DNA from: a bacterium
GTDB taxonomy: Bacteria > Patescibacteriota > Minisyncoccia > Phycocordibacterales > Zambryskibacteraceae
Assembly (NCBI GenBank): GCA_030649135.1
Contig: JAUSGI010000006.1
Location: 43,534 to 107,533 of the forward strand
DNA length: 64,000 bases
Reading direction: 5' to 3'
Below are positions 36,827-64,000 of this stretch, piece by piece. The number at the start of each line of letters is the position of its first letter. Position 1 is the stretch's first letter. The notes below the pieces were generated by a model that was given only the letters and a program-made list of their open reading frames with translations, had not been told where the DNA came from and made no database searches. Made by a program: the position numbers and the translations under genes.

Positions 36827-36863
36827 GGTGGCACTACTTCGCCTAGGCTACGAAGTGCGAAGC

Positions 36864-36939: not shown

Positions 36940-36990
36940 TATTGTGCTCTACTTCACCCCACCTAAGTCAGGCGGGGCAAGCTGAGCTAT
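36940..36990. repeat. about 50 bp element immediately 5' of tRNA-Thr(GGU), copy B
   Basis: ttattgtgctctacttcaccccacctaagtcaggcggggcaagctgagcta. Confidence 0.6.
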
Positions 36991-37067
36991 CTTGGCAAAC
37001 AAAAGAATGGCTCTAATCTTATAGAGTTTAAAGCCCTTTTGCAAAATAGCGTCCGGATGACTGGTCG

Positions 37068-37952: not shown

Positions 37953-38026
37953 GAATAAGCCTAAAATATTAATACTTAGATTATACCATGGTGCGCTGGG
38001 TAGTGGACCGCGGAACTAGGATTATG

Positions 38027-38257
38027 CTATCTCCTTTCTATCACAATTCCAATACATGCGTTTCCCCCACCAGCATCAGGGCAAGAGCGGCCATCGGGTG
38101 TTTTGCAAGAATTATCGATTTTAATTCCTAAACAGTCACACTCCCTGTGGATATACCCCCACGCGTAATTCGTATAATCGCAAGATTTGGGATAAATAAC
38201 ATAACCAATAAGGACAAGCCCTGTTATTATTAAAATAATTTGAATAGTTCTTTTCAT
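38027..38257 (-). CDS. small secreted Cys-rich protein
   Basis: 76 aa, N-terminal TM/signal, 8 Cys. Confidence 0.4.
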   Translation of the reverse strand: MKRTIQIILIITGLVLIGYVIYPKSCDYTNYAWGYIHRECDCLGIKIDNSCKTPDGRSCPDAGGGNACIGIVIERR

Positions 38258-38259
38258 AG

Positions 38260-38333
38260 CGCGGTCAACCGGACTTGAACCGGCAACCTCTCCCGTGACA
38301 GGGGAGTGCTCTAACCAGTTGAGCTATGACCGC
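38260..38333 (-). tRNA. tRNA-Asp (anticodon GUC)
   Basis: GCGGTCA/TGACCGC acceptor, anticodon loop CTGTCAC, T-loop TTCAAGT, discriminator G. CCA not encoded. Confidence 0.85.
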
Positions 38334-38375
38334 AATGGATTACAAATTAGCAGATTTTCGCCACTAATTCAATTG

Positions 38376-38446
38376 TGCCGGTGAATGGAATCGGACCATT
38401 GTTTGAGGCTTATGAGTCCTCTGTTCTGCCATTGAACTACACCGGC
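38376..38446 (-). tRNA. tRNA-Met (anticodon CAU; initiator, elongator or Ile2/lysidine not distinguishable)
   Basis: GCCGGTG/CACCGGC acceptor, short D-loop AATGGCA, anticodon loop CTCATAA with an A-G at the 31-39 pair, T-loop TCCGATT. 71 nt, no CCA. Confidence 0.65.
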
Positions 38447-38584
38447 AATAGCCTTGATACTATATTATGAAATCTTGATTTTCTCAATAAAAAGCGTATG
38501 ATGGGCGGGACAGCGGGTTGGAGGAGTAGTACCTCGACAGGCTCATAACCTGTAGGCATCCGTGCAAATCGGGTACCCGCAACA

Positions 38585-50059: not shown

Positions 50060-50064
50060 TTTGG

Positions 50065-51132
50065 TTACACCATACGCTCAAGCGTCTTGGGGTTAGAGGA
50101 GAATTGGAAAGCATTTTCCACCGTCACTTCTCCCTTTCTCACCAATTCAGCCAGACATCTGTTCAAATCAATCATCCCGTCCTCCGAACTGGTCTCAATG
50201 ACAGAACCGATTTCGTGGGTGCGTTTTTCGCGAATCAGATTGGCGGTAGCGTTATTATTAATGAGAAGTTCAAAGGCCGGAATCAATCCGCCGGAGATGC
50301 GAGGCAAGAGACGCTGGGAAAAGATACCCAAGAGACTGCTTGCCAATTGGATACGGATTTGGGTTTGCTGGTCAGACGGGAAGGAGTCGATAATACGGTC
50401 CACCGTCTGACCAGCCGTATTGGTATGGAGAGTCGATAAGACGAGATGCCCGGTTTCCGCGGCAGTCACCGCGGTAGAGATAGTTTCCGGGTCACGCATC
50501 TCACCAATCATCACAATATCGGCGTCCTGACGAAAGACTCCCTGCAGTGCAGTATGGAAATCTGGGGTATCAAGCTTGACCTCGCGCTGGTCGATAATCG
50601 CTTTCTTGGGTTCGAAAATGTATTCCACCGGGTCCTCGATGGTAATGATGTGTTCGAGCCGCTCCAGGTTGATGGTCTCCACCATAGTGGCAAGCGTAGT
50701 GGATTTACCCACCCCTACCGGACCCACTACCAAGAAAAATCCCTGCTGGCGCTTGGCAAACGTTTCAAGAATCGGCGGCAGATTGAGCTCTTCGAAACTT
50801 TTTACTTTGGTCGGCACCAACCTCATAGCTACGTTAAATCTGCCTAGTGAGAAGAAGGCGTTACAGCGGAAACGCAGTTTACCGACATGACTGTAAGCAA
50901 AGTTAGTCTCCTTGCGGGCCACAAATTCTTTGTTTGCTTCCGGAGAAAGAAAGACGGCGAGAAATCCCTCCATGTCCGCGCGCGTAAGTACGGGCATCTT
51001 CATCAGAGGAATCAAGAAATTAGAAACTCGAATGACTGGTGGCCGGCCTTCCGAAAGGTGGAGATCGGAAGCGCCCTCCTTGACCACCGTGTCCACAAGT
51101 TCACTTAAAAGTTTTTCCGGTGTGGCAGACAT
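50065..51132 (-). CDS. pilT: type IV pilus retraction ATPase
   Basis: Walker A GPVGVGKST, Asp box, Walker B and His box; 355 aa, typical PilT length. Confidence 0.85.
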   Translation of the reverse strand: MSATPEKLLSELVDTVVKEGASDLHLSEGRPPVIRVSNFLIPLMKMPVLTRADMEGFLAVFLSPEANKEFVARKETNFAYSHVGKLRFRCNAFFSLGRFNVAMRLVPTKVKSFEELNLPPILETFAKRQQGFFLVVGPVGVGKSTTLATMVETINLERLEHIITIEDPVEYIFEPKKAIIDQREVKLDTPDFHTALQGVFRQDADIVMIGEMRDPETISTAVTAAETGHLVLSTLHTNTAGQTVDRIIDSFPSDQQTQIRIQLASSLLGIFSQRLLPRISGGLIPAFELLINNNATANLIREKRTHEIGSVIETSSEDGMIDLNRCLAELVRKGEVTVENAFQFSSNPKTLERMV

Positions 51133-51133
51133 A

Positions 51134-51523
51134 TTATTTATTTTCCAAATTAGCGATTTTTAGGGCCTCCTCGACTACTTCCGAAGGGATAGTTGTCGCC
51201 TTAACGATATAGCCATTGATGCCGAGCGCTTTGGCCTGCTCGATCTTGTCCCGATCGCTTTCATTAGTGAGCATAATGACCACGGCATTGGGAACGAGTT
51301 TCTCTTTACGAATAATTTCCAGAAGTTCGATACCGTCGATGTCCGGCATGATGATATCGAGAATGAGGATGTCCGGTTTGGCGCCGCCGCGCAGTTTGAT
51401 AAGCGCATACTCGGAACCGACCACCACATCCACGACGGCACCTTCACTTTCAAACTTCTTGCGATACATGTCCAAGAGAAACTTGTCGTCATCCACTATG
51501 AGTACCGTGTATTTTTTCCCCAT
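51134..51523 (-). CDS. stand-alone CheY-like receiver-domain response regulator within the pilus locus
   Basis: YTVLIVDDDKFL, ILILDIIMPDIDG (phospho-acceptor Asp), conserved Thr/Lys downstream. Start taken at MGKKY. Confidence 0.7.
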   Translation of the reverse strand: MGKKYTVLIVDDDKFLLDMYRKKFESEGAVVDVVVGSEYALIKLRGGAKPDILILDIIMPDIDGIELLEIIRKEKLVPNAVVIMLTNESDRDKIEQAKALGINGYIVKATTIPSEVVEEALKIANLENK

Positions 51524-51530
51524 CACTCTA

Positions 51531-53120
51531 TTATAGCGTATTAATTTCCTCAAATGGAATGATTCGTTGGAAGGCCTTGAGGACGGCGTCCTCTTTCATA
51601 GAGAGCATCCCTTTGGCCCGCGCCACCTTGTGAATCTCGGTTTCGGTCGGATTTTTGAGAATGACCGCCTCGATATTCTTATCCATTTCAAGCACCTCTA
51701 TTACCGCCACCCGCCCGGAGGTGCCTTTGAGACATTCCGGCGTTTGTTCAATCTCGTAAACTTCTTTACCGAAAGCAATTTTCTTTCTGAATTCCGGGGG
51801 TAAATCTTCGAATTGCTTGTCAAGCATCAACTTGATGGAATCTTCGACAGCAATCGGTTTACCGCTATTAGGACAGAGCTTCCTAACCAGCCGCTGGGCC
51901 ATGGTTAGAATTAATGTCGGGGCTATGAGGTAGGGGTCTACGCCCATGTCTATCAGTCGCGGGATGGCGCCGATGGCGTTATTGGTGTGAAGAGTTGAGA
52001 ACACGAGATGTCCGGTCAGTGCGGCTTGGATAGCAAGCTGGGCTGTCTCCTTGTCCCGAATCTCCCCCACCATAATCACGTCTGGGTCCTGACGCAAAGT
52101 GGTGCGCAGACCGGTAGCGAAGGTGTAGTCTATCTCCGGATGAATTTGAGACTGCGAGACACCGTCTATCGAGTACTCCACAGGGTCCTCAAGCGAAAGG
52201 ACGTTCATGTGGTCCTTATCCACTTCATTAAGCATCGCGTAAAGAGTGGTTGACTTACCGGACCCTGTCGGGCCGGTGACGAGAATCAGACCATACGGAC
52301 GTTTGAAAGCTTTTCTTAGCAATGCCAGATTAGTTTCCGAGAAACCCATATCGTCGAGAGTCCTTAAACCTTGCGACTGGTCGAGAATACGCATGACCAC
52401 TTTCTCGCCATAATAGGTGGGGAAAGTCGAAACACGAAAGTCAATCTTTCTGTCACCCACTCTGGCGGAGAAACGGCCGTCTTGAGGTTTGCGCTTCTCA
52501 TCCAAACGCATATTCGAGAGAATTTTAATACGAGCCACCACCGCCGAGTGAACTTTGATAGGTAAAATAAGCGAGGTGTTAAGCTGGCCATCGACACGGA
52601 AACGGACGCGAATATTTTCATTCGTCGGCTCTATGTGAATGTCGGAAGCCTTGCCCTCGGAAGCATAGCTCAAAATAGTGGCCACGATTTTGGTCACCGG
52701 AGCATCTTCCACTATCTTGGCCTCGGAGAGCCCTTTTACCTCCTCACCCTTGGCTTCTTTGGGAATACTGACGGAAAGTTCCGATTCCAGTTCGGAAAGC
52801 GCTTTAGTCACCGTGCCGGAAAGTCCTTTATACTTTCCCAATATCAAAGCGAAGTCGTTCTCGCTGATGAGAAAAAGTTTATAAGGCATGCCGATGCGCG
52901 CGGAGATGAAGTTGAGCGCGTCGCGAGCCTCCAAATCATTCGGGTCTATGGCGCCCACTTCGAGCACGCCGTCTTTCACACCGATGGGCACCACCCGATA
53001 GTGTTCGGCCGATTCTTGCGGTATGTACTCGAGTATCTCGCCGGAGACTTCTATATCTTTGATACCTCTGGTCGGAATACCGGGTAGGGACCCCTTGCTA
53101 TTGGCAGGACTGGCCATCAC
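51531..53120 (-). CDS. pilB: type IV pilus assembly ATPase (GspE/PilB family)
   Basis: Walker A GPTGSGKST, tetracysteine-like region, GspE N-terminal domain. 529 aa. Confidence 0.9.
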   Translation of the reverse strand: MMASPANSKGSLPGIPTRGIKDIEVSGEILEYIPQESAEHYRVVPIGVKDGVLEVGAIDPNDLEARDALNFISARIGMPYKLFLISENDFALILGKYKGLSGTVTKALSELESELSVSIPKEAKGEEVKGLSEAKIVEDAPVTKIVATILSYASEGKASDIHIEPTNENIRVRFRVDGQLNTSLILPIKVHSAVVARIKILSNMRLDEKRKPQDGRFSARVGDRKIDFRVSTFPTYYGEKVVMRILDQSQGLRTLDDMGFSETNLALLRKAFKRPYGLILVTGPTGSGKSTTLYAMLNEVDKDHMNVLSLEDPVEYSIDGVSQSQIHPEIDYTFATGLRTTLRQDPDVIMVGEIRDKETAQLAIQAALTGHLVFSTLHTNNAIGAIPRLIDMGVDPYLIAPTLILTMAQRLVRKLCPNSGKPIAVEDSIKLMLDKQFEDLPPEFRKKIAFGKEVYEIEQTPECLKGTSGRVAVIEVLEMDKNIEAVILKNPTETEIHKVARAKGMLSMKEDAVLKAFQRIIPFEEINTL

Positions 53121-53122
53121 TT

Positions 53123-53416
53123 TTAATCTCGACCAATAATGTCGAATGGATTAGGTCTGCCGACCGTCTGTAGCGGGATAGTCACGCCAAAATCGGTTAA
53201 CAATAGGTAGCCTGCGGAAGAGAATACCGCCCGGTCCAAGGTTACCGCCTGCAGTTCGTCATATATTTTAAGAAGGTCGTCTCCAATGCTTGAAGCCGAT
53301 AATTCGGCAGGTTCGGAGGTAGTATCCGATTTCCAGAAAAGATTGTAGAGAAACATGGCTGCGATAAAGACCGCGATGATGGCCAGGATGCCTTTGTTTT
53401 TGGTAAGTGTTTGCAT
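53123..53416 (-). CDS. small pilus-locus membrane-anchored protein
   Basis: 97 aa, one N-terminal TM helix. Confidence 0.35.
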   Translation of the reverse strand: MQTLTKNKGILAIIAVFIAAMFLYNLFWKSDTTSEPAELSASSIGDDLLKIYDELQAVTLDRAVFSSAGYLLLTDFGVTIPLQTVGRPNPFDIIGRD

Positions 53417-53417
53417 A

Positions 53418-53960
53418 TTATTTGAGCCAGTATGTTTCGGCTACTATTTTATAGTCATAGAGATTAGACTCGCCTACCCGAAACGAGATAGATTTGATAT
53501 CCATAATGCGCAAACTTCTTTCTATGTCGGCGAGTAGTCGCGTGAAGTTCGCGTAGGTGGCGATAAAGCCGAAGGAGACCGTCACTTTCTCGTAGACATT
53601 CTCGTTTCCCGGCAAGACGATGAGAGTGGCGTCTTCACTTGTGCCGGTGACCGCCTGAATATCTTTGATAGAGATGCCGTAGCGGGCGGCCATGCCGTCG
53701 AGGTCAAGCGCCAACCGCACGGTATCGATATTATCCGGTAAAGATTTATTGATACGTTCGATTTCTGTCTTGGGAAACGTTTCGTACGTGACGAGTAAAC
53801 GGTCTCTTAACTCGGTAATGGCGGATACGTTTTGCAAAACATTTTGATACTCATTGGACAGAGCATACATTTTTTTCACGTCTTGGTATTGGGCGTTGGT
53901 AAAGGTATAGAAAATCCCCACGGACAGGAGTAGCAAAACGATGGCGGTGTTGTGTTTCAT
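53418..53960 (-). CDS. PilO-like pilus assembly protein
   Basis: N-terminal TM helix then a coiled-coil/periplasmic domain; position between the PilN-like gene and pilB. Start taken at MKHNTAIV. Confidence 0.45.
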   Translation of the reverse strand: MKHNTAIVLLLLSVGIFYTFTNAQYQDVKKMYALSNEYQNVLQNVSAITELRDRLLVTYETFPKTEIERINKSLPDNIDTVRLALDLDGMAARYGISIKDIQAVTGTSEDATLIVLPGNENVYEKVTVSFGFIATYANFTRLLADIERSLRIMDIKSISFRVGESNLYDYKIVAETYWLK

Positions 53961-53967
53961 TTTGGTT

Positions 53968-54627
53968 CTAGGTTGAGGTGGCCGTACTGGTGGCGGTAGG
54001 TCCCGCTGTCGGCACAATCACAGGCGCGCCGAGACGTTCCACCTCCCTCTTGTATGACACCAGAGACGAATCGACCACCGCCTTGAAAGAAAAATTGACA
54101 TCCCCCTTGGCATTTAAATTCAAGTCGGAGAAAATGGCGTTTTTAAAATACTGACTCTTGCTGAACATATCGGCAAGGAAAGCGAGCGCCGCGTACCCGC
54201 GTGCTTCGCCTCTCAATGTAAACTCCAGACCTTGTTCGGTTCTTACATAACTAAAGTCGTTGAAACGCACCGTCTTGGGAGTAGAGACCTCCAGAAACTC
54301 AAACAAGGGGGTGAGGATACTGTGAGCCGCGATTAAATCTTTGGTCGAGATAATACGGTTGTCCAGACGAGTCAATTCACGAATAGTGCCCGGCGACAGG
54401 GTGGCGCGGGCCGCTTCCAAGGCCACACCCATCTGGTCAATGCTGTATTTGAGATAAAACTTATAGCCGAACACTCCCGCCGCCGCGACAATAGAGACAA
54501 TAAAAACGGCTAAAGCCAAAACAGCCAGTAAACTTGTATCTTTGGTCTTGGGTCCCATGGATACGCCGGGGACAGGAGCTGCGAAGGGACCTTTGGGGAT
54601 AAAAGACGATTGAAATTTCGGATCCAT
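53968..54627 (-). CDS. PilN-like pilus assembly protein
   Basis: N-terminal cytoplasmic segment, single TM helix, periplasmic domain; directly downstream of pilM. Confidence 0.5.
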   Translation of the reverse strand: MDPKFQSSFIPKGPFAAPVPGVSMGPKTKDTSLLAVLALAVFIVSIVAAAGVFGYKFYLKYSIDQMGVALEAARATLSPGTIRELTRLDNRIISTKDLIAAHSILTPLFEFLEVSTPKTVRFNDFSYVRTEQGLEFTLRGEARGYAALAFLADMFSKSQYFKNAIFSDLNLNAKGDVNFSFKAVVDSSLVSYKREVERLGAPVIVPTAGPTATSTATST

Positions 54628-54686
54628 TTAGTTGCATTATACAACGGAAAGCAATTTACTGACACACAAAGAGTGTTTATAACTAT

Positions 54687-55832
54687 TTATTCCCCTTCCG
54701 CGAGTTTACGCAGAGCAAGACCGATGGCCACGGCAAATTCCGGACCGGTTTCCCTAAGAATATTTTCAAGAAAGGCCGGGGCGGAAACTTTGTTGAATGG
54801 GTTGGCGATGACCACATCTGTTTTGAAATTATCTTTGGCTAGGTCCGCAAGTCCTTTGAGCGCGGAGCCGCCACCGACCAGAATCACCTTGGAAATAGTC
54901 TTGTTGTGCTTCTTCTCGAAGGCCAGAATGGCGTTATTGACCTCGGCAAAGATGTGGTCAAGGTTTAAAACGATGAGGTCGGTCAAATTTTTATCCTCAC
55001 CCGTTGCTCCCACTTGCCGTTTCATCACTTCCGCGCGTTCGAGAGTAAGTCCGAGTGATTTCGAGATGGTGGCGGTGAGGTCTTGGGAACCGCGATTGAC
55101 CGTATGCGAAGAACGGATAACTCCGCGCTCGACGACATAGAGTTTGGTCGAGGCGGCACCCATATCTATAATCATCACCGGTCGCAGCGCTTCGTCGAGC
55201 ACGGCGCGCATGGTACTGAATATCTCGATTTCGAAAAAGCCGGCCTCCAGTCCGCTTTTGGCCACAATCTCCTGATATCGAGCAATCGTTTCATTGTGTA
55301 TCGCCACAATCAGCACATCAACTTTGGCAAGCAGAGACGGCACCCCGGCTCCTTGCTCATTTGAAGGCCGTTCGTCCGGCGCGACATATTCCGAAGTATC
55401 TTCCGCCTTGACTTCACTTTTGGGAATAACAGACCAGTCAATCATCACTTCCGAAATAGGCACCGGGATATATTTACGCGCCTCAAGTGGCACCATGACC
55501 GCCAGTTGTTTGGGGCTAACATCAGGCATTTCAATCACCGACATGAGAGAGGAAGCAAACGGGATGGAGATACCGCATTTCTTTGTGGTGATGTTGACCT
55601 CCTTCTCTTTCATTAAGTCCGCGAGCGCTTGGGCAATTTTGTCCGGCGCAAGCGCCACCGCCTGACCCACACCGAGACCGGCATAAGGACCGAGGGCCAA
55701 TTCGCCATATGTCTCAAGTACGGCTTGGCTGTTTTTCTTTTTTATTTGCACTACTTTGATGGCCGAGGAACCGATGTCCACACCCAATGCCGAGGATTCG
55801 GCCTGATTGAAAAATTTAGAAAAGAATGCCAT
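54687..55832 (-). CDS. pilM: type IV pilus assembly protein PilM (actin-like ATPase fold)
   Basis: ALGVDIGSSAIKVVQIKKKN phosphate-1-like motif; 381 aa. Confidence 0.8.
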   Translation of the reverse strand: MAFFSKFFNQAESSALGVDIGSSAIKVVQIKKKNSQAVLETYGELALGPYAGLGVGQAVALAPDKIAQALADLMKEKEVNITTKKCGISIPFASSLMSVIEMPDVSPKQLAVMVPLEARKYIPVPISEVMIDWSVIPKSEVKAEDTSEYVAPDERPSNEQGAGVPSLLAKVDVLIVAIHNETIARYQEIVAKSGLEAGFFEIEIFSTMRAVLDEALRPVMIIDMGAASTKLYVVERGVIRSSHTVNRGSQDLTATISKSLGLTLERAEVMKRQVGATGEDKNLTDLIVLNLDHIFAEVNNAILAFEKKHNKTISKVILVGGGSALKGLADLAKDNFKTDVVIANPFNKVSAPAFLENILRETGPEFAVAIGLALRKLAEGE

Positions 55833-55858
55833 GTGTCTTATAATATCATAATCTTTCC

Positions 55859-56554
55859 ATGCACTTTCTCTCCCGTATTAGAGATTTGTTTACCGACTTT
55901 CTTTTCCCGCGAAGTCAGAAGGTGTTGGCACTGGAGGCGCTTTCCGCCGGAGCGCTCGTTGACATTTTGCCGCCTGCCGAACATTCGGAAGACCCGCCTG
56001 CTCCCGACGCAGGAGGGCGGGCAGGCAAAAATGTCCTGGCGCTCTTCGATTACAGTCACCCGCTTGTCAAGGAAATTATTTGGGAACTGAAATATGGCGG
56101 TAACGTGCGCATAGCGGATAAGCTCGGAGAAATTCTCTACGACCACATACAGCACGAACTCCAGGACCTTACCTATTTTGAAAAATGGAGTAAACCAATA
56201 TTATTAATGCCCATACCCATTTCAGGTAAACGGCGGTTTGAGCGCGGCTGGAATCAATCCGAACTCCTAGCTGAAGCGATTATGAAGCGTGATAGCCAAA
56301 ATTTATTTAGATACTTACCAAGGCAACTCGTCAAAGCGCGAGAGACCGAGAGTCAGACCAAGACTGCGTCGAGAACCGAGCGTTTGGGAAATATTACGAA
56401 TTCGATGAAAGTTTTGAATGCAGAGTCGGTCGGGGGAGAGTGCGTGATCGTTTTAGACGATGTGACTACCACCGGTTCCACTTTCGCCGAAGCACGAAGA
56501 GTACTCCGCGCCGCCGGCGCGAAAAAAATTTTATGCGTAGCAGTCGCGCATTAA
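55859..56554 (+). CDS. comFC: ComF-family competence protein (phosphoribosyltransferase-like)
   Basis: C-terminal PRTase motif CVIVLDDVTTTGSTF; divergent from pilM. Confidence 0.75.
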   Translation: MHFLSRIRDLFTDFLFPRSQKVLALEALSAGALVDILPPAEHSEDPPAPDAGGRAGKNVLALFDYSHPLVKEIIWELKYGGNVRIADKLGEILYDHIQHELQDLTYFEKWSKPILLMPIPISGKRRFERGWNQSELLAEAIMKRDSQNLFRYLPRQLVKARETESQTKTASRTERLGNITNSMKVLNAESVGGECVIVLDDVTTTGSTFAEARRVLRAAGAKKILCVAVAH

Positions 56555-56556
56555 CC

Positions 56557-56973
56557 CTAACGAGTACGCAGTAGAGTATTTACCAACACCACACCCATAA
56601 TATCGTAGTCGGCCCACTCCGGCACCGGCACCGCGCTGTCCGGTTTAATGGTCCCCGTCACAGCGATAGTATCTTCCGCCTTGAGATCAGAATTGACATC
56701 TTGGATGCGGCTGATATCGAGAGCGTAATGGAGGCCGTCGCGGCTTTTGACACCGAGCGTGCATGTTTCAAGAGCAGGCGTTTCGATTCCATCTTTGAGC
56801 GGCAGACAGCTGAATTTGCCGGTAATGGTAACCATGCTGTCAATCTCGTCATTAACAATCTTGTCCCAACCCTTGAACAAGAGGAAACCGAAGACCGCAA
56901 GCGCGACCAGCACAACTAGCCAGATGGCATTACTGCGAAAAAAGCCTCTTTCATCAAAATTTCTCATATACAT
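56557..56973 (-). CDS. hypothetical membrane-anchored protein
   Basis: 138 aa with an N-terminal TM helix. Confidence 0.4.
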   Translation of the reverse strand: MYMRNFDERGFFRSNAIWLVVLVALAVFGFLLFKGWDKIVNDEIDSMVTITGKFSCLPLKDGIETPALETCTLGVKSRDGLHYALDISRIQDVNSDLKAEDTIAVTGTIKPDSAVPVPEWADYDIMGVVLVNTLLRTR

Positions 56974-57020
56974 GAATTATATCAGTACCCCAACTTTTGG
57001 CAAATACCAGAGATATTGCC

Positions 57021-57161
57021 TTATTTGCCCCGGATGAAACGCAGAAGAATCACAATAACAGCCACCACAAGTAGGATGTGAATGAGGACACCTGCAACAG
57101 GAAAAATGATAAACCCAAAGAGCCACAACACCAAAAGCACAATTCCAATAGTTACTAGCAT
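57021..57161 (-). CDS. small (46 aa) hydrophobic membrane protein resembling the lmo0937-type family
   Basis: Manual translation MLVTIGIVLLVLWLFGFIIFPVAGVLIHILLVVAVIVILLRFIRGK. Below the track's length cutoff. Confidence 0.45.
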   Translation of the reverse strand: MLVTIGIVLLVLWLFGFIIFPVAGVLIHILLVVAVIVILLRFIRGK

Positions 57162-57216
57162 GATTTTTATTAATTAATATTTACAGCTTCCATTATACCT
57201 TCTTTACAGTTAAAAA

Positions 57217-57834
57217 CTAACGAGGATTAATATACTTCTGATAATGTGGATCATCCTTACTCATGTGTTTAGCAATGATGTCTCTGATAAATTCTGATTT
57301 GTTCATTTTGTAGTAAAAACTCGCCCAATCTAAATAATTTTCTATTGCTTTACTGAATATAATATTGAATTTAACAGTAGGGCTAGCGCTTTTGCTTAGA
57401 AAATGTGCAAGTATTCGCTTAATATCTTCTTTACTAGAATATCTTGCTATGGTGAGAAGTGGTGATTTTATTCCATTTATAAAAGAGTTTTGTAGTTTAT
57501 TCTTCTTGTCTGACCCGTCATTATAAAGAAGTACCAGTACCGGCTTATTTTTACTTAAGGCCAAAGTCATTTGATGTCCAATGCTAAAACTTGATACCGT
57601 TCCTTCTATTATAACGACGTCCGACGCCAATATAGACTCGATGGCTTTATTGTAGATTGCTACTCTGTCGATTTTGATTTTCCCCTTTTTATAGTCGCCC
57701 AAAGTTGCAACGGCGTTATCAATCCAATCCCTTGTTATGGTATGGCCCGTATCCCTAACAAGATTACATATATCCACGTAATTTTTGCCATATACCTCTA
57801 GCTCAGAAGTAGAGCATGCAAAATGTATCTTCAT
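57217..57834 (-). CDS. Rcl/nucleoside 2-deoxyribosyltransferase-fold domain fused to a C-terminal ribbon-helix-helix-like domain
   Basis: KIHFACS (compare KIYFxGS) and SDVVIIEGTVSSFSIGHQMTLALSKNKPVLVL (compare Rcl ADVVVAEVTQPSLGVGYELGRAVAFNKRILCL). The expected catalytic Glu aligns to Gln. C-terminal KFNIIFSKAIENYLDWASFYYKMNKSEFIRDIIAKHMSK has a beta-alpha-alpha RHH pattern. Confidence 0.45.
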   Translation of the reverse strand: MKIHFACSTSELEVYGKNYVDICNLVRDTGHTITRDWIDNAVATLGDYKKGKIKIDRVAIYNKAIESILASDVVIIEGTVSSFSIGHQMTLALSKNKPVLVLLYNDGSDKKNKLQNSFINGIKSPLLTIARYSSKEDIKRILAHFLSKSASPTVKFNIIFSKAIENYLDWASFYYKMNKSEFIRDIIAKHMSKDDPHYQKYINPR

Positions 57835-57884
57835 AGGTATAACGATACTATAATTTGCGTATTTTGTAAATGTCTCATTTCTAC

Positions 57885-57923
57885 TTGACTTCTATGTATG
57901 GCATATGTAAATATGTATGGTAT
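57885..57923 (+). promoter_or_regulatory. promoter TTGACT(17)TAAATA overlapped by a tandem direct repeat (putative operator)
   Basis: TTGACT at 57885..57890 and TAAATA at 57908..57913. Repeats TATGTATGGCATA (57893..57905) and TATGTATGGTATA (57911..57923), 18 bp period, overlap the spacer and the -10. Confidence 0.4.
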
Positions 57924-57962
57924 ACATACAACATTACAAATATCACAAATCGCCAACTAATT

Positions 57963-58718
57963 ATGTACACAAAAATTGAACCATTTGGATATGCTGTGTA
58001 CGGCGAATTAATTGGAAGCACATGGCTAAGTCTTGTCGAGGCTGTGGTTAAAAATGGCCAAATAACAACGGACGAGGGTAGAAAAAGATACTCTCTTCAA
58101 AATATACGAGTAAGATCAGCCACTTCGGCTAGAACAGATCCGCTAATAGCTAAATATGCAAACCAGCAAAATATTGCGGAGATAGTGAAACTCACTTTTA
58201 ACAAAGATCTTATGTATGACATAGACGTAACTCCGTCATTTACTCCTGGGGCGCAAAGTTATTACGCCAGAATTAAAAATTGGAAAATGCTTGATTTCAT
58301 TGTGGGCAGGCTCACAGAAATACCGGAATCAAAAAAGGCGGTAATGTCTTTTATCAGAGAGGAAGATTATATTAAGGTTTTAAAAAACCCAAAAGATGAC
58401 TATTTGCCATGCATTACAACCATACAGTTTAGATTATTAAAAATAGATAATGAAAAAGGGTACCATATGAATATCATTTTTAGTGCCAGATCTATGGATG
58501 CCTACCAAAAATCTATCGGTAACTTGGTAGCCATTGCCATACTGGGGGAAGAAGTGGCAAAACGACTGAAAAAAAATCTGGGGGTTCCCGTCTGGGAAGG
58601 AAGCATCGATGGACTAATAACTGATGCGCATATTTACGACAACACAATAGACGAAGCCAGAAAACTATTAGAATCCTACAAAAAAATAGAGAGCAATGAG
58701 TCACATGAAAAAGCGTAA
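57963..58718 (+). CDS. thymidylate synthase (ThyA)-fold enzyme, divergent (thymidylate synthase or a pyrimidine-deoxynucleotide hydroxymethylase)
   Basis: Aligns to ThyA blocks: YLPCITTIQFRL (compare LAPCHAFFQFYV, catalytic Cys kept, His replaced by Ile); IFSARSMDAYQKSIGNLVAIAIL (compare [21 protein letters not shown]); ITDAHIYDNTIDEA (compare GDTHLYSNHMDQT). N-terminal folate/dUMP-binding blocks are poorly conserved. 252 aa from ATG 57963. Confidence 0.65.
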   Translation: MYTKIEPFGYAVYGELIGSTWLSLVEAVVKNGQITTDEGRKRYSLQNIRVRSATSARTDPLIAKYANQQNIAEIVKLTFNKDLMYDIDVTPSFTPGAQSYYARIKNWKMLDFIVGRLTEIPESKKAVMSFIREEDYIKVLKNPKDDYLPCITTIQFRLLKIDNEKGYHMNIIFSARSMDAYQKSIGNLVAIAILGEEVAKRLKKNLGVPVWEGSIDGLITDAHIYDNTIDEARKLLESYKKIESNESHEKA

Positions 58719-59283
58719 GAAAGTAGTAGTATTTGAAGGAATTGATGGTTCGGGAAAATCGACCCAAGCTCGCTTGCTATATTTTGCTCTTAAAAAAAGA
58801 AATATTTCTGCAGACTTATACCACTTCCCATCGGAGGGTATCATAGGAAAATTTGTTAGGAGTCTTTTGGAGAAGGAAGAATTTGACACTTTGGATTCAA
58901 AATCCCGTGCACTACTTACTGCTTCAGACTTTTACAGCCAATATCACAGGAGCAATAATGATTCGGATATGATTATATTTGACAGATATTTTCATTCCAG
59001 TTATGCATCTAACGATGCCTTAGACGAAGAGTGGATTAAGGCAATACATCAATATGCGCCAGACCCGGATATTGTTTTCTTTTTGGACGGAGAACCGAAA
59101 TCAATCAAAGAAAGGGATGGCATTGATTCCGGTGCAAAAAATGAAGCGAGGCAAAAAATGCTCAGCATTAGATATAAAAAGATATTTGAGAATATACCCA
59201 ATATCACCATCAATGCCAACAAAGATATTGAAACAACGCATCAAGAGGTGCTACAGACCGTTATTAAAAAATTAAATATATGA
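58696..59283 (+). CDS. tmk: thymidylate kinase-family (d)NMP kinase
   Basis: P-loop VVFEGIDGSGKST; FPSEG...IGKFVRSLL (compare TREPGGT...LAEKLRSLL); DRY motif IFDRYFHSSYA; LID-like region. Overlaps the upstream gene by 23 nt. Confidence 0.8.
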   Translation: MSHMKKRKKVVVFEGIDGSGKSTQARLLYFALKKRNISADLYHFPSEGIIGKFVRSLLEKEEFDTLDSKSRALLTASDFYSQYHRSNNDSDMIIFDRYFHSSYASNDALDEEWIKAIHQYAPDPDIVFFLDGEPKSIKERDGIDSGAKNEARQKMLSIRYKKIFENIPNITINANKDIETTHQEVLQTVIKKLNI

Positions 59284-60161
59284 TAAACATAGAAGGAGAA
59301 CTAAAAATGGAAGACAAGGTAAATGAGGACATGGATTTATTAAAATCCCTTGATGACTTGTTTACTGTAAAAAGAGGCTTTGTGATAAAAATGCCGCCAA
59401 AGGGAGAATCGGTAGCTGCTTGTTTATCTGGTGGTATGGACTCGGTTACCAATATAGCAATGCTCATGAAAGAATATGGTTTAAAAGTGTATCCATTTTT
59501 TATTAACAGGGGACAATCCAATTATGTTTACGAAAAAAAGGCGGCCGATTATTTTAATTCCTTTTTTAAAGAAAAGTTTCCCGACCTATACAATGATTAT
59601 CTTGAAATTACAGTAATGACTCCCGGGGAAGAATATAAAGACTTGCTTCGCGATGCCAAGAGGCTGGTTGACCCCTTACCATTGCGCCACAATGTATCTT
59701 ACCCATCAAGAAACCCTATAATATTCTTAACAGGGATGGAGTATGCTTATTCCTTAAAAGCAAAGGGGGTTGAAATTAAAACAATGTTCGCATCTTATGT
59801 CTCTTCCGACTCATCTTATCACTGTGGTTTAACAAATACTCGTTTGATGAATGTGCTGATGTGTCAGATACTAAACGATTGGAATTGGCAATTTATTTCC
59901 ATCCCAATAGAGCGCGAACTGGGAAACTTTTTCGACAAAGACGTGTATGTCAAATGGGGTTACGAGAACAATATTCCCCTCCACTTTTCAAGGACATGCG
60001 TTAAACACTTTGATGTCGAGTGCGGAGACTGCCCGACCTGCTGGGACAGAAGAAGGGGTTATAAAGAAGCCGGTATTGATGATCCGACCCCATATAAATA
60101 TGAGATGTCCTCAGAATTCCCAACCTATTACGACCATGAAAAAGAAGAGCAGATGCAATAA
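59280..60161 (+). CDS. QueC-family PP-loop ATP pyrophosphatase with about 45 aa N-terminal extension
   Basis: PP-loop LSGGMDSVT; FINRGQS (compare FDYGQR); PSRNPIIFLTGMEYAYS (compare PGRNILFLTLASIYAYQ); C-terminal Zn motif CGDCPTCWDRRRG (compare CGxCxxCxxR). Start overlaps the tmk stop (ATGA). Confidence 0.7.
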   Translation: MINIEGELKMEDKVNEDMDLLKSLDDLFTVKRGFVIKMPPKGESVAACLSGGMDSVTNIAMLMKEYGLKVYPFFINRGQSNYVYEKKAADYFNSFFKEKFPDLYNDYLEITVMTPGEEYKDLLRDAKRLVDPLPLRHNVSYPSRNPIIFLTGMEYAYSLKAKGVEIKTMFASYVSSDSSYHCGLTNTRLMNVLMCQILNDWNWQFISIPIERELGNFFDKDVYVKWGYENNIPLHFSRTCVKHFDVECGDCPTCWDRRRGYKEAGIDDPTPYKYEMSSEFPTYYDHEKEEQMQ

Positions 60162-60165
60162 TAAT

Positions 60166-60729
60166 ATGAAAATAGAAACAGAAATTAAATTAGCAATAGA
60201 AGAATCCTCAATAAAAGACGTCATTGCTAGAATCGAACAAGAGTTCGATTGTAAAAAATCTGACCCTTTCCTCCAGACTACGCATCAATTCTTTTTCGAA
60301 GATCATACAAAACAAAAGGCCTTCCCAAGAATCCGTAACGAAGAGAACGGGAGCATTACTTTAACTGTAAAAGCCAAACTAAAAGAAACTAGTGAATTCT
60401 TTAAACGAATAGAGTTGGAAACGACTATTACTAATGCCGAGAAGGTTATCGACATGATGCCATTTTTTGGCTTCCCTAAAAAAATCTCCTGGGAGAAAAA
60501 GCGTCATTCTTTTTTAATGAACGGCGATACTGATGTATGTTTTTTCCTGGATGAGACTCCTATGGGTTGGTTTTTAGAAATTGAGGCGGAGGAAAGTAAA
60601 ATAGAAGAAGCTATTACTAAACTTGGACTACAAGAAGCCCAAAGAATTAATGGGGCTTATCTGGGTCTATGGGAGAAATATAAAAAAGAGCACAATATTT
60701 CTAGGGATAATATGATGTTTGGTGCGTAG
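60166..60729 (+). CDS. CYTH-domain (triphosphate tunnel metalloenzyme) protein
   Basis: N-terminal ExExK signature (MKIETEIKL) and an alternating charged beta-strand pattern. 187 aa from ATG 60166, 4 nt after the QueC-like stop. The track's longer ORF 59947..60729 overlaps the previous gene. Confidence 0.55.
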   Translation: MKIETEIKLAIEESSIKDVIARIEQEFDCKKSDPFLQTTHQFFFEDHTKQKAFPRIRNEENGSITLTVKAKLKETSEFFKRIELETTITNAEKVIDMMPFFGFPKKISWEKKRHSFLMNGDTDVCFFLDETPMGWFLEIEAEESKIEEAITKLGLQEAQRINGAYLGLWEKYKKEHNISRDNMMFGA

Positions 60730-60760
60730 TAGTTTTTGATAGGCACTACCATCGCACTCT

Positions 60761-61990
60761 TCACTTCTTTTTCGACTTAAAGTATTCTTTACCTTTTATT
60801 TTCTCGGGCAACAAGTCCTCTTTAGTATACTCTCCCGCCTGCCCTCCCGATTGGTCGGGAGCGGGCAGGTCGTACCCTTCGCCGTAGCCAAGGTCCTTCA
60901 TCAGTTTGGTCGGGGCATTGCGGATTTTAAGAGGAATGGGGAGATTGCCGTGTTCTTTAGCATCAGACATGGCTGCGAGATAGGCGTAGTAGCCACTCCT
61001 ATCTTTCGGCGCGAGCGATAGATAAATCACTCCGTGAGAAAGGTTGATGCCTGCTTCAGGATAGCCGATGGTTTCCACCGCCCGGAAAACAGCGTTGGCC
61101 AGAGGCAACGCATGAGAATCTGCCATACCAATATCTTCGCTGGCAAAAATTACCATTCGCCTCGCGATAAATTTAGGGTCTTCGCCAGAATCAATCATCC
61201 GCGCTAGATAGTAGAGCGCGGCATCTGGTTGGCTGGCGCGCATGCTCTTGATAAAAGCGCTAATAGTATTGAAGTGTTCATCTCCCTTTTTATCGTACCG
61301 AAGATGTTTTGATTGGAGCGTGTTCTTCAAGTTTTCTATAGTCACGTCGCCATAGAGTCTCTCGGTATTCTCAAGCATCGCGATGGCTTGCCTCGCGTCC
61401 CCTCCTGCCATACCAATGAGCCAGTCTCTGGCATCTTGGTCCATTGAAAATTTCGTGCGTTCGATAATCTCTGCCATTTCCGTATCGGACAATTCGTTTA
61501 AAACGAAAACGCGACAGCGTGATAAAAGAGCCGGGATAACTTCGAAGCTTGGATTCTCGGTCGTAGCACCGATGAGAGTCAATTTGCCTGACTCGACATA
61601 AGGCAGGAGAAAATCTTGTTGGGCTTTATTGAATCGGTGAATCTCGTCGAGGAATAAAACTTTAGGCCCCGCCTTCGCCAAGGCTTCGGCGGGTAAGGCA
61701 AAAAGAGTATTACCTGCTTTAGATTTCTTCTGTACATCTTCAACTATTTCTCGAATATCTTCTTTGCCCGCAGAGACTGCGGAGAGTTCGTGGTACTGGG
61801 CATTGAGAGCCTCGGCATAAATTTTGGCCAAAGTAGTTTTGCCAACCCCAGGCGGCCCCCAGAGGATGAAGGAGAATAAATGCTTTTTAGACACGGCAAT
61901 TTCCAAGGGTTTCCCCTTCCCCACCAAGTGTTTCTGGCCGATAAATTCCTTTAAATTTTTAGGCCTAATTTTAAACGCCAGCGGTTCCAT
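60761..61990 (-). CDS. rarA: replication-associated recombination protein A (AAA+ ATPase RarA/MgsA)
   Basis: Walker [10 protein letters not shown], Walker [11 protein letters not shown], sensor and MgsA C-terminal domains. 409 aa. Confidence 0.85.
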
Positions 61991-62116
61991 CCCTAAATTA
62001 TACTCCTAAGTTAATGTGTGGGCGGTGATCTCGGGTTAAGTGCCTCACGAGTGAGGCTTTGTAAGCGTATTCTAGCATCTTTAGAATCTCTAGATTGAGG
62101 TACTCGGGTCGGGGGT

Positions 62117-62386
62117 CTAATTTTTGCGATAGAGAAAATATTGGACGAGCGTTATGCCCCACATAATAATTCCCACTGCAAAGGAAACCGATGGTAGATA
62201 GGCACCAGTTGCAAGAAAGAAAGCGATTTGCGAAGCATAGAAACCAAGAGCAATAAGTATGGTGAGGATGGGTTGCCCCGAGCGTCTCTCGCGATAATTT
62301 TTTACTATTTGAGCAGGAATTCCGATAAGCACCAAAGCGAGTGAAAAAATACTAACCAAAATACTAAGAGTAAATACTATGTCCAT
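62117..62386 (-). CDS. small 3-TM membrane protein (PQ-loop/SemiSWEET-like?)
   Basis: 89 aa; GIPAQIVKNYRERRSGQ after TM1 resembles a PQ-loop motif. Confidence 0.35.
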   Translation of the reverse strand: MDIVFTLSILVSIFSLALVLIGIPAQIVKNYRERRSGQPILTILIALGFYASQIAFFLATGAYLPSVSFAVGIIMWGITLVQYFLYRKN

Positions 62387-62609
62387 ATATCTATTATATC
62401 TTTTGGCGGTGACGATGTCCGGAAGTTTGAACCGAAAACATGGCTCAAATTCAAGGATATTGATGAAAGTATACGTGAATTAAGGGCAATCTACAAAGTT
62501 CATCCCCAATGGTTTGAAGTACCAAAGCCAAAGTCAGATAAGGGACGAAATGCAGTAGATTATTCTGTCTAGCTTAAAATATGCAGGCTACTCAGGTTGG
62601 TTCACTATT

Positions 62610-63605
62610 CTATTCTGCGGTAAACATTGTATATGGCCCCGATTCGCTAATAGATATACCGCGGGACTTTCTATGGTCTTTATAATTGAAGTTCTTTGTC
62701 AGCTTTTCCAAGTGTATCTTATCCTTTGCTATTGCACATTGGTGGCTATTTGAGAGTATCAATGAATTTATATTCCTGACCTGTCCCTTATCCAATTTCA
62801 TGTAATACTCTGCTTTTGATTTCATGCTCGGTTTTATGTAAAGACAGATATCTGGTCTCAAAGGAAAATATACCGTTGAGTGAGGAGATAAAAGACCATT
62901 AAATTTTGATGTCGATACTGTAAAACAAGGACTATCTGAAGTGATGAAAGAACTACCTTCAGGAGCTACAAGAAATAACCATTGCATTTCAAATATCTTC
63001 TCGGCGTGTCGATCTACTTTGAGAAGGCCTTTTGAGTGACCTGTCTTTGTAAGACCGATTCTGACCGTATCACCATGTATCGCCTCAAAAATCTGCGAGT
63101 TTATTTCTTCCTGCGTCATTTTACTTATCACATCCAGAGCATCACTCTCCATTTTATTCTGTGGGTTATGTTCGAGTATTTTCTCTTTGGACATATGCAC
63201 CTTATCTGGTGATGGAAGGTCTTTTCTCATAAAATGTCGGGTAGTGGCTTCGATCAATTTGTTTGTTTCCTCTCTGTGTCGCGGGGTTCTTGTGTACTGC
63301 AATGCCGTATAAAAAGCCACACAACTCCTGTCCATACCTGATAATAATTCTTCGCTTGCAGTATTTATTTTCCTGATAACTTCAATACCCTTTGTATCAA
63401 TAATTGCTGTAATTTCCTCTGGGAGGTAGGACTTCTCACCGTCATCTTCAAGGACATTAAAATCATCTCTCCAAAAACCCTTCCATCCCGGTCCTCTTTC
63501 TATAATCTGGTTTTCTTCAATAACATAAATATTGAGCTGATTTTCTGTTCCGCTTTTTCTCCATTGAGTAAGATATTTGTCTTGAACGATGTGATGCTTT
63601 GCCAT
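62610..63605 (-). CDS. DUF4238-like protein
   Basis: N-terminus MAKHHIVQDKYLTQW matches the HH(I/V)PQ.YL..W start I recall for DUF4238 family members. 331 aa. No other recognised motif. Confidence 0.4.
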   Translation of the reverse strand: MAKHHIVQDKYLTQWRKSGTENQLNIYVIEENQIIERGPGWKGFWRDDFNVLEDDGEKSYLPEEITAIIDTKGIEVIRKINTASEELLSGMDRSCVAFYTALQYTRTPRHREETNKLIEATTRHFMRKDLPSPDKVHMSKEKILEHNPQNKMESDALDVISKMTQEEINSQIFEAIHGDTVRIGLTKTGHSKGLLKVDRHAEKIFEMQWLFLVAPEGSSFITSDSPCFTVSTSKFNGLLSPHSTVYFPLRPDICLYIKPSMKSKAEYYMKLDKGQVRNINSLILSNSHQCAIAKDKIHLEKLTKNFNYKDHRKSRGISISESGPYTMFTAE

Positions 63606-63661
63606 GACCTTGTGGATAACTTTATTTGTATACTTTCTATTTATTTTCTATACTAACATAT

Positions 63662-64000
63662 ATGCTTACAAAAAAACAAACACAAGTCCTCGATTTTATA
63701 AAAATATATATGGTAAAGCACAGCTACGCCCCCTCCCTAGAGGAGATCAAGCGCAAATTTAAGCTTGCTTCTGTTTCTACCGCCCATTATTATTTAAAAA
63801 AACTACAAGAAGCCGGGCAACTCAAAAAGGAATTTAATCAGCCGCGCGCTGTTTCTACAATAGAGGCAAAACAAACCATCGAAATTCCCATTCTGGGAGC
63901 AATAGCTGCTGGACAACCGATTGAGGCGATAGAAATTCCAGACGAAACTATCACGATTACAAGAGATGAAATTGGAAAGCAGGGCAAACACTATGCTTTG
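63662..64000 (+). CDS. lexA: LexA repressor, N-terminal part (continues beyond window end)
   Basis: Manual translation MLTKKQTQVLDFIKIYMVKHSYAPSLEEIKRKFKLASVSTAHYYLKKLQEAGQLKK is the LexA winged-helix DNA-binding domain. Not in the ORF track because it is edge-truncated. Confidence 0.7.
   Translation, partial: MLTKKQTQVLDFIKIYMVKHSYAPSLEEIKRKFKLASVSTAHYYLKKLQEAGQLKKEFNQPRAVSTIEAKQTIEIPILGAIAAGQPIEAIEIPDETITITRDEIGKQGKHYAL

Follow-up and report, generated by a model that had tools for sequence, protein, structure and literature searches.

A putative pyrimidine-nucleotide operon built on a thymidylate synthase-like and QueC-like enzyme pair in Patescibacteria

Results

Gene content and layout of the block

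We analyzed a 64,000-nucleotide stretch of a Patescibacteria genome of the family Zambryskibacteraceae (GenBank assembly GCA_030649135.1, contig JAUSGI010000006.1, positions 43,534 to 107,533), called the window throughout, and studied in it a block at positions 57217-60729 by open reading frame (ORF) listing and by family scans against Pfam, NCBIfam and PADLOC. Five ORFs make up the block, and the listing recovers them at the coordinates first assigned to them. A putative regulator is encoded on the minus strand, and divergent from it is a plus-strand run of four genes, for a thymidylate synthase-like protein (ThyA-like), a dTMP kinase-like protein (Tmk-like), a QueC-like protein and a CYTH protein (Table 1). 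The four genes are packed as tightly as the first-pass annotation had proposed. The ThyA-like stop at 58718 and the Tmk-like ATG at 58696 define a 23-nt overlap, the Tmk-like stop (59283) and QueC-like ATG (59280) share an ATGA overlap of 4 nt, and a 4-nt spacer separates the QueC-like stop (60161) from the CYTH ATG (60166).

While the five genes themselves stood, two of their limits had to be moved. The ThyA-like gene almost certainly starts at 57963 rather than at 57870, because MY(V/T)K opens every homologue and P0121, the identical NCBI product, has 251 aa. The CYTH gene is the shorter frame given in Table 1, instead of the longer ORF that starts at 59947.

Table 1. Coordinates of the block, its candidate operator and the related operons found at other loci.
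Feature	Sequence	Position	Strand	Remarks
Regulator, 205 aa	Window	57217-57834	-	Divergent gene
Candidate operator	Window	57890-57931		Within the 128-nt divergent control region 57835-57962
ThyA-like, 251 aa	Window	57963-58718	+	Short archaeal-type thymidylate-synthase fold
Tmk-like, 195 aa	Window	58696-59283	+	P-loop kinase, dTMP-kinase family
QueC-like, 293 aa	Window	59280-60161	+	QueC-family PP-loop ATP pyrophosphatase
CYTH, 187 aa	Window	60166-60729	+	Triphosphate-tunnel metalloenzyme, N-terminal ETEIK (= ExExK)
Sister operon	L052	7001-9411		Regulator homologue, ThyA-like::methyltransferase, CYTH
Sister operon	L053	7001-9438		Regulator homologue, ThyA-like::methyltransferase, CYTH
Sister operon	L054	6001-7862		Regulator homologue, ThyA-like::methyltransferase, CYTH

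The ThyA-like and QueC-like genes form an invariant pair

Loci for comparison comprised 26 from species-representative genomes and several from metagenome contigs, and gene order was analyzed in 30 loci. A single QueC-like sequence matched nothing in the scan of the genome collection; the loci were recovered with an alignment-based query. In 26 of the 30 loci the distance from the ThyA-like stop to the QueC-like start is -26 to +7 nt, and the remaining four (this window, L001, L009 and L010) differ by the insertion of a Tmk gene alone between the two. Both of the ThyA-like homologues that were picked independently of QueC (P0181 and P0174) likewise have a QueC-like gene adjacent. We saw no ThyA-like protein of this family without a QueC-like partner, and the pair is unsplit in 32 loci. 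Since the pairing held in all 30 loci and in P0181 and P0174, well beyond what chance would produce, the two genes are the invariant core of what we call the cassette. Adjacency and overlap are kept across Patescibacterial classes, and fusions of the QueC-like protein with Ham1 and of the ThyA-like protein with NUDIX occur, which supports the earlier proposal that the four plus-strand genes act as one functional unit.

A short, archaeal-type thymidylate synthase fold

The ThyA-like protein is assigned by its sequence to a short archaeal-type branch and not to canonical ThyA. Pfam Thymidylat_synt matches at 31.4 bits (threshold 24.3), over the C-terminal half of the model alone. The top NCBIfam model is the methanogen-type TIGR03283, which aligns end to end (profile positions 6-200 of 201) and scores 46.6 bits, far below its cut-off of 174.55. 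Canonical ThyA scores are not reached (NF002495, 36.8 versus 327), and the other ThyA equivalogs give at most 17 bits. When the family profile was searched against 1.84 billion representatives, it gave 138 matches at E<=1e-3, among which there appear to be essentially no canonical ThyA sequences; the next relatives are short proteins of 200-255 aa that score 56-140 bits on TIGR03283. Although TIGR03283 is the best curated model, the ThyA-like protein differs from the methanogen-type enzymes in being bacterial and about 45 residues longer, and in lacking the MtrA-like or pterin-binding partner domains.

Equivalent residues were assigned from an alignment to one solved ThyA together with a family alignment. 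The catalytic Cys150 lies in an LPCI motif that is in register with the PPCH of the solved enzyme, with Ile in place of His, and the Cys and Pro of the motif are invariant among 25 aligned homologues. These alignments bear out two features remarked on at first pass, PCI instead of PCH and weak N-terminal blocks. Cys146 of E. coli ThyA corresponds to Cys150, R166/S167/D169 to R176/S177/D179, N177 to N187, H207/Y209 to H223/Y225, R126/R127 to K124/K125, and L143 to Tyr147. R176, S177, D179, N187, H223 and Y225 are invariant in the family, the equivalent of R21 is uncertain, and the folate-contacting Trp80 and Trp83 have no alignable counterpart. The signature of the dCMP/CMP hydroxymethylases T4 gp42 and MilA (Asp at N177, an acidic residue at L143) is absent, these positions being Asn187 and Tyr147. 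By the rules derived for ThyA homologues, Asn at 177 specifies uracil, and methyl is favoured over hydroxymethyl when position 143 holds a bulky residue that is not acidic (PMC13326640). Because of the Asn at the 177 position, the substrate is probably dUMP, with the deoxy sugar presumed, and the product may well be dTMP. Some ThyA homologues are flavin-dependent hydroxylases (PMC13326640), and we are therefore cautious about the chemistry.

Some relatives of the ThyA-like protein carry fusions to MtrA-like and PterinBD-DUF4346 domains, to an S-adenosylmethionine (SAM) methyltransferase, or to NUDIX. Two archaeal-type fusions in the representative library, P0389 and P0431, join an MtrA-like domain, a short ThyA-like domain and PterinBD-DUF4346, and suggest that short ThyA-like proteins obtain their one-carbon unit from separate donor modules.

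A QueC-family enzyme with altered substrate motifs

The QueC-like protein scores 41.8 bits on PF06508 and 27.8 on TIGR00364, against a cut-off of 150.3. As noted at first pass, the N-terminus is long, with about 45 residues ahead of the SGGMDS loop. The PP-loop (S50-GG-M-D54-S) and a zinc site (C240-x7-C248-x2-C251-x2-C254) are invariant in the family, and a VPxRN-like (PxRN) motif is kept. In QueC the substrate signature consists of YxQxHxxE and YPDC, with Tyr35 and Tyr131 essential (PMC13329287). The first region reads R77-G-Q-S-N-Y-x-Y-E in the QueC-like family, so that Tyr35 becomes Arg77 and His39 becomes Asn, and the second reads S-D-S-S-Y-H-C/S, the YPDC being lost; the protein is also some 110 residues longer than QueC. 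No queD, queE, folE or tgt was present among the called neighbours at about 30 loci. With the substrate motifs altered or lost and these genes in none of the loci, the QueC-like enzyme is not a preQ0 synthase. The 7-deazaguanine link raised at first pass thus falls away, and the first-pass suspicion that the ThyA-like and QueC-like proteins both depart from the standard enzymes is upheld by the missed curated cut-offs and the altered QueC motifs.

Structural neighbours of the QueC-like protein include YcfA, LarE, ThiI and GMP synthase, which activate ring or nucleobase carbonyls, or carboxylates, of mononucleotides. YcfA, from 6-thioguanine biosynthesis, performs PP-loop adenylation and substitution on a free mononucleotide. 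More generally, the PP-loop fold adenylates a carboxylate or lactam oxygen that nitrogen or sulphur then replaces, and GMP synthase and LarE act on free mononucleotides (PMC13329287). Beyond the PP-loop, the QueC-like protein shows no detectable sequence similarity to the ATP-PPase domain of GMP synthase, to YcfA or to LarE. We know of none of these three that acts on a pyrimidine nucleotide or is paired with a ThyA-fold enzyme.

Two loci with Ham1-type cassettes (L023, 3409-4152; L025, 9403-10146) hold within the cassette a second, shorter QueC paralogue of 247 aa. This paralogue is nearer to canonical QueC (PF06508, 66.7 bits), and suggests that some lineages may carry out two successive PP-loop steps.

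Hydrolase and kinase positions are kept while folds are exchanged

The CYTH protein matches PF01928 (27.3 bits, threshold 23.2) and opens with MKIETEIK; on the class IV adenylate cyclase equivalog (CyaB TIGR00318) it scores 28 bits (28-30 across the CYTH proteins scored), below the cut-off of 57.95. The third cassette gene encodes CYTH in about 19 loci and Ham1/ITPase in at least 5. Ham1 is fused to the QueC-like protein in P0070/L027, and P0337 joins NUDIX to a ThyA-like protein that belongs to the same family. A kinase lies upstream or downstream, of the AAA_17 (archaeal-adenylate-kinase-like) type in 14 loci, and elsewhere a Tmk of two kinds or a deoxynucleoside kinase (dNK)/Tmk-like protein. 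Both the hydrolase and the kinase function are kept in the cassette while the folds swap. The suggestion that CYTH belongs to the pathway is thereby refined, as the hydrolase position is kept and the CYTH fold is exchangeable with Ham1 and NUDIX.

In the window the Tmk-like protein scores 92 bits on PF02223 and 91 bits on TIGR00041, above the cut-off of 83.25, and its sequence shows a GIDGSGKST P-loop and an FDRYFHS (DRY/F) motif. At first pass it was paired with the ThyA-like protein, after the ThyA-homologue and dNMP-kinase core of phage pyrimidine hypermodification pathways. Its place between the core genes is limited to four loci, and other kinase folds serve elsewhere; this Tmk is an insertion of the lineage and lies outside the conserved core.

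Three JGI contigs carrying P0110 (L047-L049; for example L047, 1299-8328) hold an enlarged cassette. This includes a regulator homologue, a ThyA-like gene, an AAA_17 kinase, two full QueC-like copies, a Ham1 fragment and an intact Ham1, together with a 491-aa protein that joins an N-domain to a Ppx/GppA phosphatase and extra proteins of 121 and 202 aa. We considered the 202-aa protein of L047 as an NDK-like kinase and dropped the idea, as profile scores gave it no family support. P0087 (486 aa) was likewise set aside as a cassette fusion, its QueC-like N-terminus being joined to an unrelated tail.

The divergent gene and its predicted operator

The divergent gene product matches no family in Pfam, NCBIfam or PADLOC. 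Its N-terminal domain resembles nucleoside 2-deoxyribosyltransferase (NDT), Rcl/DNPH1 and MilB, and MilB is the best structural match. With DNPH1/Rcl, a hydrolase of 5-hydroxymethyl-dUMP and other deoxynucleoside monophosphates (dNMPs), and MilB, a hydrolase of 5-hydroxymethyl-CMP (hmCMP), it shares the flavodoxin-like NDT fold. It differs from both in joining this domain to a DNA-binding-like tail and in carrying an invariant Gln88 in place of the catalytic Glu (GYE becomes GHQ). In MilB this Glu, E103, is the nucleophile, and the E103A mutant is inactive (PMC4081090). By alignment, the change to Gln is the one present in an engineered DNPH1 chain (PDB 8qhq). The C-terminal 50 or so residues contain a conserved K155-F-N-I stretch followed in the structure model by helices at 162-175 and 179-193; they match no Pfam family and, with the K-F-N-I stretch as the strand, look like a possible ribbon-helix-helix (RHH)-type domain.

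The divergent control region contains two copies of TATGTATGG(C/T)ATA, at 57893-57905 and 57912-57924, spaced by 19 nt, and the palindrome TGTATG-GTATA-CATACA. In 805 kb of fetched DNA there are just three instances of the exact 12-mer ATGTATGGTATA (window 57913, L052 6931 and L054 5979), each directly upstream of a regulator homologue. For the palindrome GTATGTAT-N(0-12)-ATACA(T/C), four instances (L001, L052, L053 and L054) were counted where 0.27 would be expected, and all four adjoin a regulator gene. In all, a conserved palindrome or motif stands beside the regulator gene in five loci, which is good evidence for a predicted, conserved operator. Because the nucleophilic Glu is an invariant Gln, and the DNA-binding-like tail comes with a conserved operator, the protein is probably a ligand-sensing repressor with a catalytically dead glycosidase fold rather than an enzyme. 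The same two observations led us to reject the regulator as an active N-glycosidase of a bacimethrin- or mildiomycin-like route, and they agree with the initial description of the divergent gene as a nucleotide-binding regulator.

A sister operon shares the regulator

Relatives of the regulator at 50-57% identity have no QueC-like neighbour. At each of the four such loci looked up, the regulator homologue is the first gene of an operon and overlaps the next gene, which encodes a fusion of a ThyA-like protein to a SAM methyltransferase and is usually followed by CYTH (Table 1). These fusions (P0386, L052-54) carry Asp at the N177 position, the cytosine-type residue. We found no description of this sister operon in the literature searched. 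At a deeper level, what is conserved comprises the regulator, CYTH and a short ThyA-like protein, with a second enzyme that is either QueC-like (alongside a uracil-type ThyA-like protein) or a methyltransferase (with a cytosine-type ThyA-like domain). An economical reading is that both operon types could converge on one kind of 5-substituted cytosine nucleotide, for example a 5-methylcytosine nucleotide, that the shared regulator would sense. Besides these genes, L052 encodes a divergent Tmk-like kinase, another CYTH and an oxidoreductase of the GFO/IDH/MocA type, and L053 has divergent genes for AMP-binding, PEP-utilising, amidohydrolase and aminotransferase proteins.

Distribution and mobility

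The ThyA-like, QueC-like and regulator proteins each form a tight family whose matches are confined to metagenome-assembled genomes of Patescibacteria (candidate phyla radiation, CPR), and the cassette proteins are conserved at 60-70% across Patescibacterial classes. The block has a GC content of 0.375 (genes 0.35-0.39), compared with 0.465 for its flanks and 0.48-0.51 for the neighbouring housekeeping genes, and it is bordered by pilM and a ComF-like gene on one side and by RarA/MgsA on the other. With its GC lower than that of these housekeeping neighbours, the block looks like a recently acquired island. Elsewhere, the cassette is lower in GC than its flanks in about half of the loci; its flanks are not syntenic, and integrases, IS605 TnpB, type IV secretion system, toxin-antitoxin and restriction-modification genes lie nearby. 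One contig in IMG/VR carries the module, and PHROGs and a phage database hold remote ThyA and QueC homologues alone, at 24-27% identity. The cassette is cellular, restricted to the phylum Patescibacteria and laterally mobile, and by these comparisons it is not of phage-like origin.

Consensus scans of the operon for promoters and terminators gave nothing above chance, and Rfam detected neither a riboswitch nor another element near it. A tRNA search of window positions 50000-64000 found none, so none flanks the block. Elsewhere in the window we recognized no other nucleotide-metabolism gene when the first residues of the called ORFs were inspected.

Discussion

A proposed pyrimidine-modifying operon

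We are evenly poised on the reading that we favour, in which the block is a self-contained, mobile and regulated operon that modifies or converts a pyrimidine at the mononucleotide level. CYTH, or Ham1 or NUDIX at other loci, would strip phosphates from a pyrimidine nucleoside triphosphate, (d)NTP, to yield the monophosphate. The cysteine of the ThyA-like enzyme would attack C6, and a one-carbon unit would be added at C5 of the uracil nucleotide, with the Tyr at the "water-excluding" position (L143) favouring methyl over hydroxymethyl. The QueC-like enzyme would then adenylate an oxygen on the same nucleotide, and nitrogen would replace that oxygen. In the simplest case the C4 carbonyl would become C4-NH2, so that a 5-substituted dUMP would yield its dCMP counterpart (5-methyl- or 5-hydroxymethyl-dCMP); alternatively, this step might activate the 5-CH2OH group. 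To our knowledge, amination of uracil to cytosine by a PP-loop enzyme at the mononucleotide level has no known example. The kinase would lift the product to the diphosphate and so into the (d)NTP pool. Feedback may be exerted by the regulator, whose dead DNPH1/MilB-like domain would sense a nucleoside monophosphate, (d)NMP, and whose RHH-like tail would bind the palindromic operator between the two promoters.

Our best guess at a product is 5-methyl- or 5-hydroxymethyl-dCMP made from dUMP, and we regard any specific product as doubtful. The biological role could be modification of self DNA, nucleotide economy, or conflict with phages or with hosts. It is tempting to speculate that some Patescibacteria make such a non-canonical pyrimidine deoxynucleotide (5-methyl- or 5-hydroxymethyl-cytosine) and incorporate it into their own chromosomal DNA, either ahead of replication or in the course of it, with the regulated cassette spreading between lineages, an idea that we think distinctly unlikely to hold. 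The base would be made from dUMP by the ThyA-like step and then by PP-loop amination of uracil to cytosine.

Several observations pull the other way. The substrates of all the cassette enzymes are deduced from residues and genomic context. The Tmk-like protein passes the dTMP-kinase threshold, and a fusion of ThyA-like to Tmk (P0144) exists, on a single 3-kb contig where it may be a frameshift; together they suggest direct phosphorylation of the ThyA-like product, as a thymine-like nucleotide, and would thereby leave the QueC-like step without a place. The Ham1-like proteins lie near the threshold of genuine XTP/dITP (purine) diphosphatases (PRK14821, 128-177 bits), and the commonest kinase resembles archaeal adenylate kinase. 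Both are more easily reconciled with a purine than with a pyrimidine branch. Common descent of a single cassette explains part of the conservation of the pair, and the one-carbon donor of the ThyA-like enzyme is not deducible, its folate-contacting Trp residues being unalignable. Finally, we know of no precedent for a cell that rewrites a base genome-wide, and the prior for that role is low.

Alternative explanations

These hydrolase and kinase affinities would be better accommodated by the main rival reading, a two-branch recycling of deaminated nucleotides, which we judge unlikely though not negligible. Here a house-cleaning NTPase (Ham1, CYTH or NUDIX) would hydrolyse dUTP and dITP/dXTP. 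The ThyA-like enzyme would convert dUMP to dTMP for Tmk, and the QueC-like enzyme, acting like an ammonia-dependent GMP synthase or an IMP aminase, would turn (d)XMP or (d)IMP into (d)GMP or (d)AMP for the adenylate-kinase-like kinase. Organisms that lack de novo nucleotide synthesis would profit from such recycling. One Ham1-like protein is indeed fused to the QueC-like enzyme; the Tmk score and the Asn177 and Tyr143 of the ThyA-like enzyme are as expected of true dTMP synthesis; and the evolution of the QueC fold centred on a guanine-shaped base, its structural relatives (GMP synthase, YcfA) activating purine carbonyls (PMC13329287). Independent branches should, however, sometimes separate, and the pair is never split, its genes overlapping in a way that points to translational coupling. 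Recycling also leaves unexplained the sister operons, where a cytosine-type ThyA-like::methyltransferase shares the regulator and CYTH, and basic salvage would hardly be expected to show so patchy, low-GC and mobile a distribution. The Ham1-like proteins, moreover, lack the canonical SHR motif of Ham1 when their sequences are read by eye. A quite improbable scheme would make the ThyA-like enzyme a "C5-activating" module to which a partner supplies the group, the QueC-like enzyme delivering an adenylate-activated carboxylate or handling a pterin-like one-carbon carrier. The partner elsewhere would be the MtrA-like and pterin-binding domains in archaea and the fused SAM methyltransferase in the sister operons, and the product a folate-independent thymidylate or a 5-acyl- or 5-carboxamido-dUMP. 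It would account for the donor-type domains carried by relatives (P0389 and P0431; P0386 and L052-54) and for the unrecognizable folate-contacting Trp, and the ThyA-like/QueC-like gene overlap suggests a 1:1 complex. Yet C-C bond formation by a PP-loop enzyme is without known precedent, the known chemistry of the QueC family is amide or nitrile formation or protein conjugation (PMC13329287), and the canonical motifs that face 7-deazaguanine or pterin are lost.

The sister operons, which unite an NDT-like protein, a cytosine-type ThyA-like protein and a methyltransferase, resemble the BcmA/B/C set. With MilB as the nearest structure to the divergent gene product, they recall a free-base or antimetabolite route of the mildiomycin, blasticidin or bacimethrin type, in which a ThyA-like hydroxymethylase would act, an NDT-like N-glycosidase would free 5-hydroxymethylpyrimidine, and tailoring would follow (MilA/MilB and bacimethrin chemistry: PMC4081090, PMC5175136). 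We think this very unlikely, as the Gln in place of E103, the DNA-binding-like tail and the operator all mark the protein as a sensor, and the presence of NMP kinases and NTP hydrolases argues for nucleotides, rather than free bases, as products. Anti-phage defence is no less remote, whether the QueC-like enzyme modified a partner protein in the manner of Cap9/QatC or the operon made a chain-terminating or poisonous nucleotide upon infection. PADLOC returned a generic QueC domain hit and no system-level match; unlike in Cap9/QatC systems, no locus has a CD-NTase/Cap10 or QatA/B/D partner. There is no 7-carboxy-7-deazaguanine source nearby and the QueC base-binding motifs are lost, while the very high sequence conservation across classes is unusual for defence genes. 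Scarcely credible, lastly, and regarded by us as refuted, is the mundane option that the first-pass annotation had kept in view, an ordinary thyA-tmk beside an ordinary queuosine queC and an unrelated CYTH. Public annotation does name the two proteins "thymidylate synthase" and "7-cyano-7-deazaguanine synthase", and the Tmk exceeds its curated cut-off. Against this stand the ThyA-like/QueC-like pairing in 30 of 30 loci, NTPase fusions to both enzymes, the wide margins by which both miss every curated equivalog cut-off, the near absence of canonical ThyA from the profile matches, and the lack of queuosine genes in any locus.

Comparison with phage modules

The pyrimidine-modifying operon that we favour would follow a logic known from phages, where an NTPase, a ThyA homologue and a dNMP kinase together achieve pre-replicative pyrimidine modification (PMC13326640). 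The cassette shares this three-part logic with the T4 set of gp56 dCTPase/dUTPase, gp42 dCMP hydroxymethylase and gp1 dNMP kinase; other comparators are the 5-hydroxy-dCMP synthase and dNMP kinase of RB69/DLP3 and the dCMP methylase of XP12. It departs from them in being cellular and found in Patescibacteria, the single IMG/VR contig apart, in having a short archaeal-type ThyA-like enzyme that is about 24% identical to any phage ThyA homologue, and in using a CYTH, Ham1 or NUDIX protein where phages have a dUTPase- or MazG-type NTPase. To the three-part set it adds a PP-loop enzyme of the QueC family, as an obligatory partner, and its own ligand-sensing repressor. At first pass the gene combination had not been recognized as any familiar pathway, and this impression holds. 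Searches of the literature on ThyA/QueC pairing, on Patescibacteria/CPR and on hypermodification returned no description of the module, and the text and accessible supplement of a 2026 survey of the QueC family (PMC13329287) make no mention of a ThyA-linked cluster.

If the favoured reading is true, the QueC/PP-loop family gains amination or substitution on a pyrimidine mononucleotide, and a defined partner is found for the short ThyA-like branch, which is itself poorly understood. Phage-style nucleotide-modification logic would then circulate among ultra-small episymbiotic bacteria that depend on scavenged nucleotides. Were the modified base also placed in the cell's own chromosome, phage base replacement would have its first cellular counterpart, and the QueC family a new activity. 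The regulator is in addition a candidate for a compact ligand-responsive switch, with its dead DNPH1/MilB-like sensor, RHH-like tail and defined predicted operator. Whatever the product, the public names of the two core enzymes are probably misleading, and would inflate queuosine synthesis, and possibly dTMP synthesis, in metabolic reconstructions of Patescibacteria.

Other features of the window

Just past RarA, a minus-strand segment at 62117-63605 is also low in GC (0.38-0.40) and holds genes for a protein of 331 aa that matches DUF4238 (Pfam, 102 bits) and for a membrane protein of 89 aa; it may be a further accessory or defence-type insertion. Runs of small plus-strand genes at 3793-5893, 6593-7267 and 9475-10209 have a GC content of 0.33-0.37 among genes of 0.44-0.58, and such low-GC runs suggest that there are several islands within the 64 kb. 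At 7239-8535 and 10566-12401 lie ORFs of GC 0.52-0.58, where Rfam found no RNA gene. A tRNA cluster at 36701-38583 comprises Thr-CGT, Thr-GGT, Asp-GTC and two Met-CAT genes, the fifth of which (Met, plus strand, 38512-38583) was called by ARAGORN and scores below the Rfam gathering threshold.

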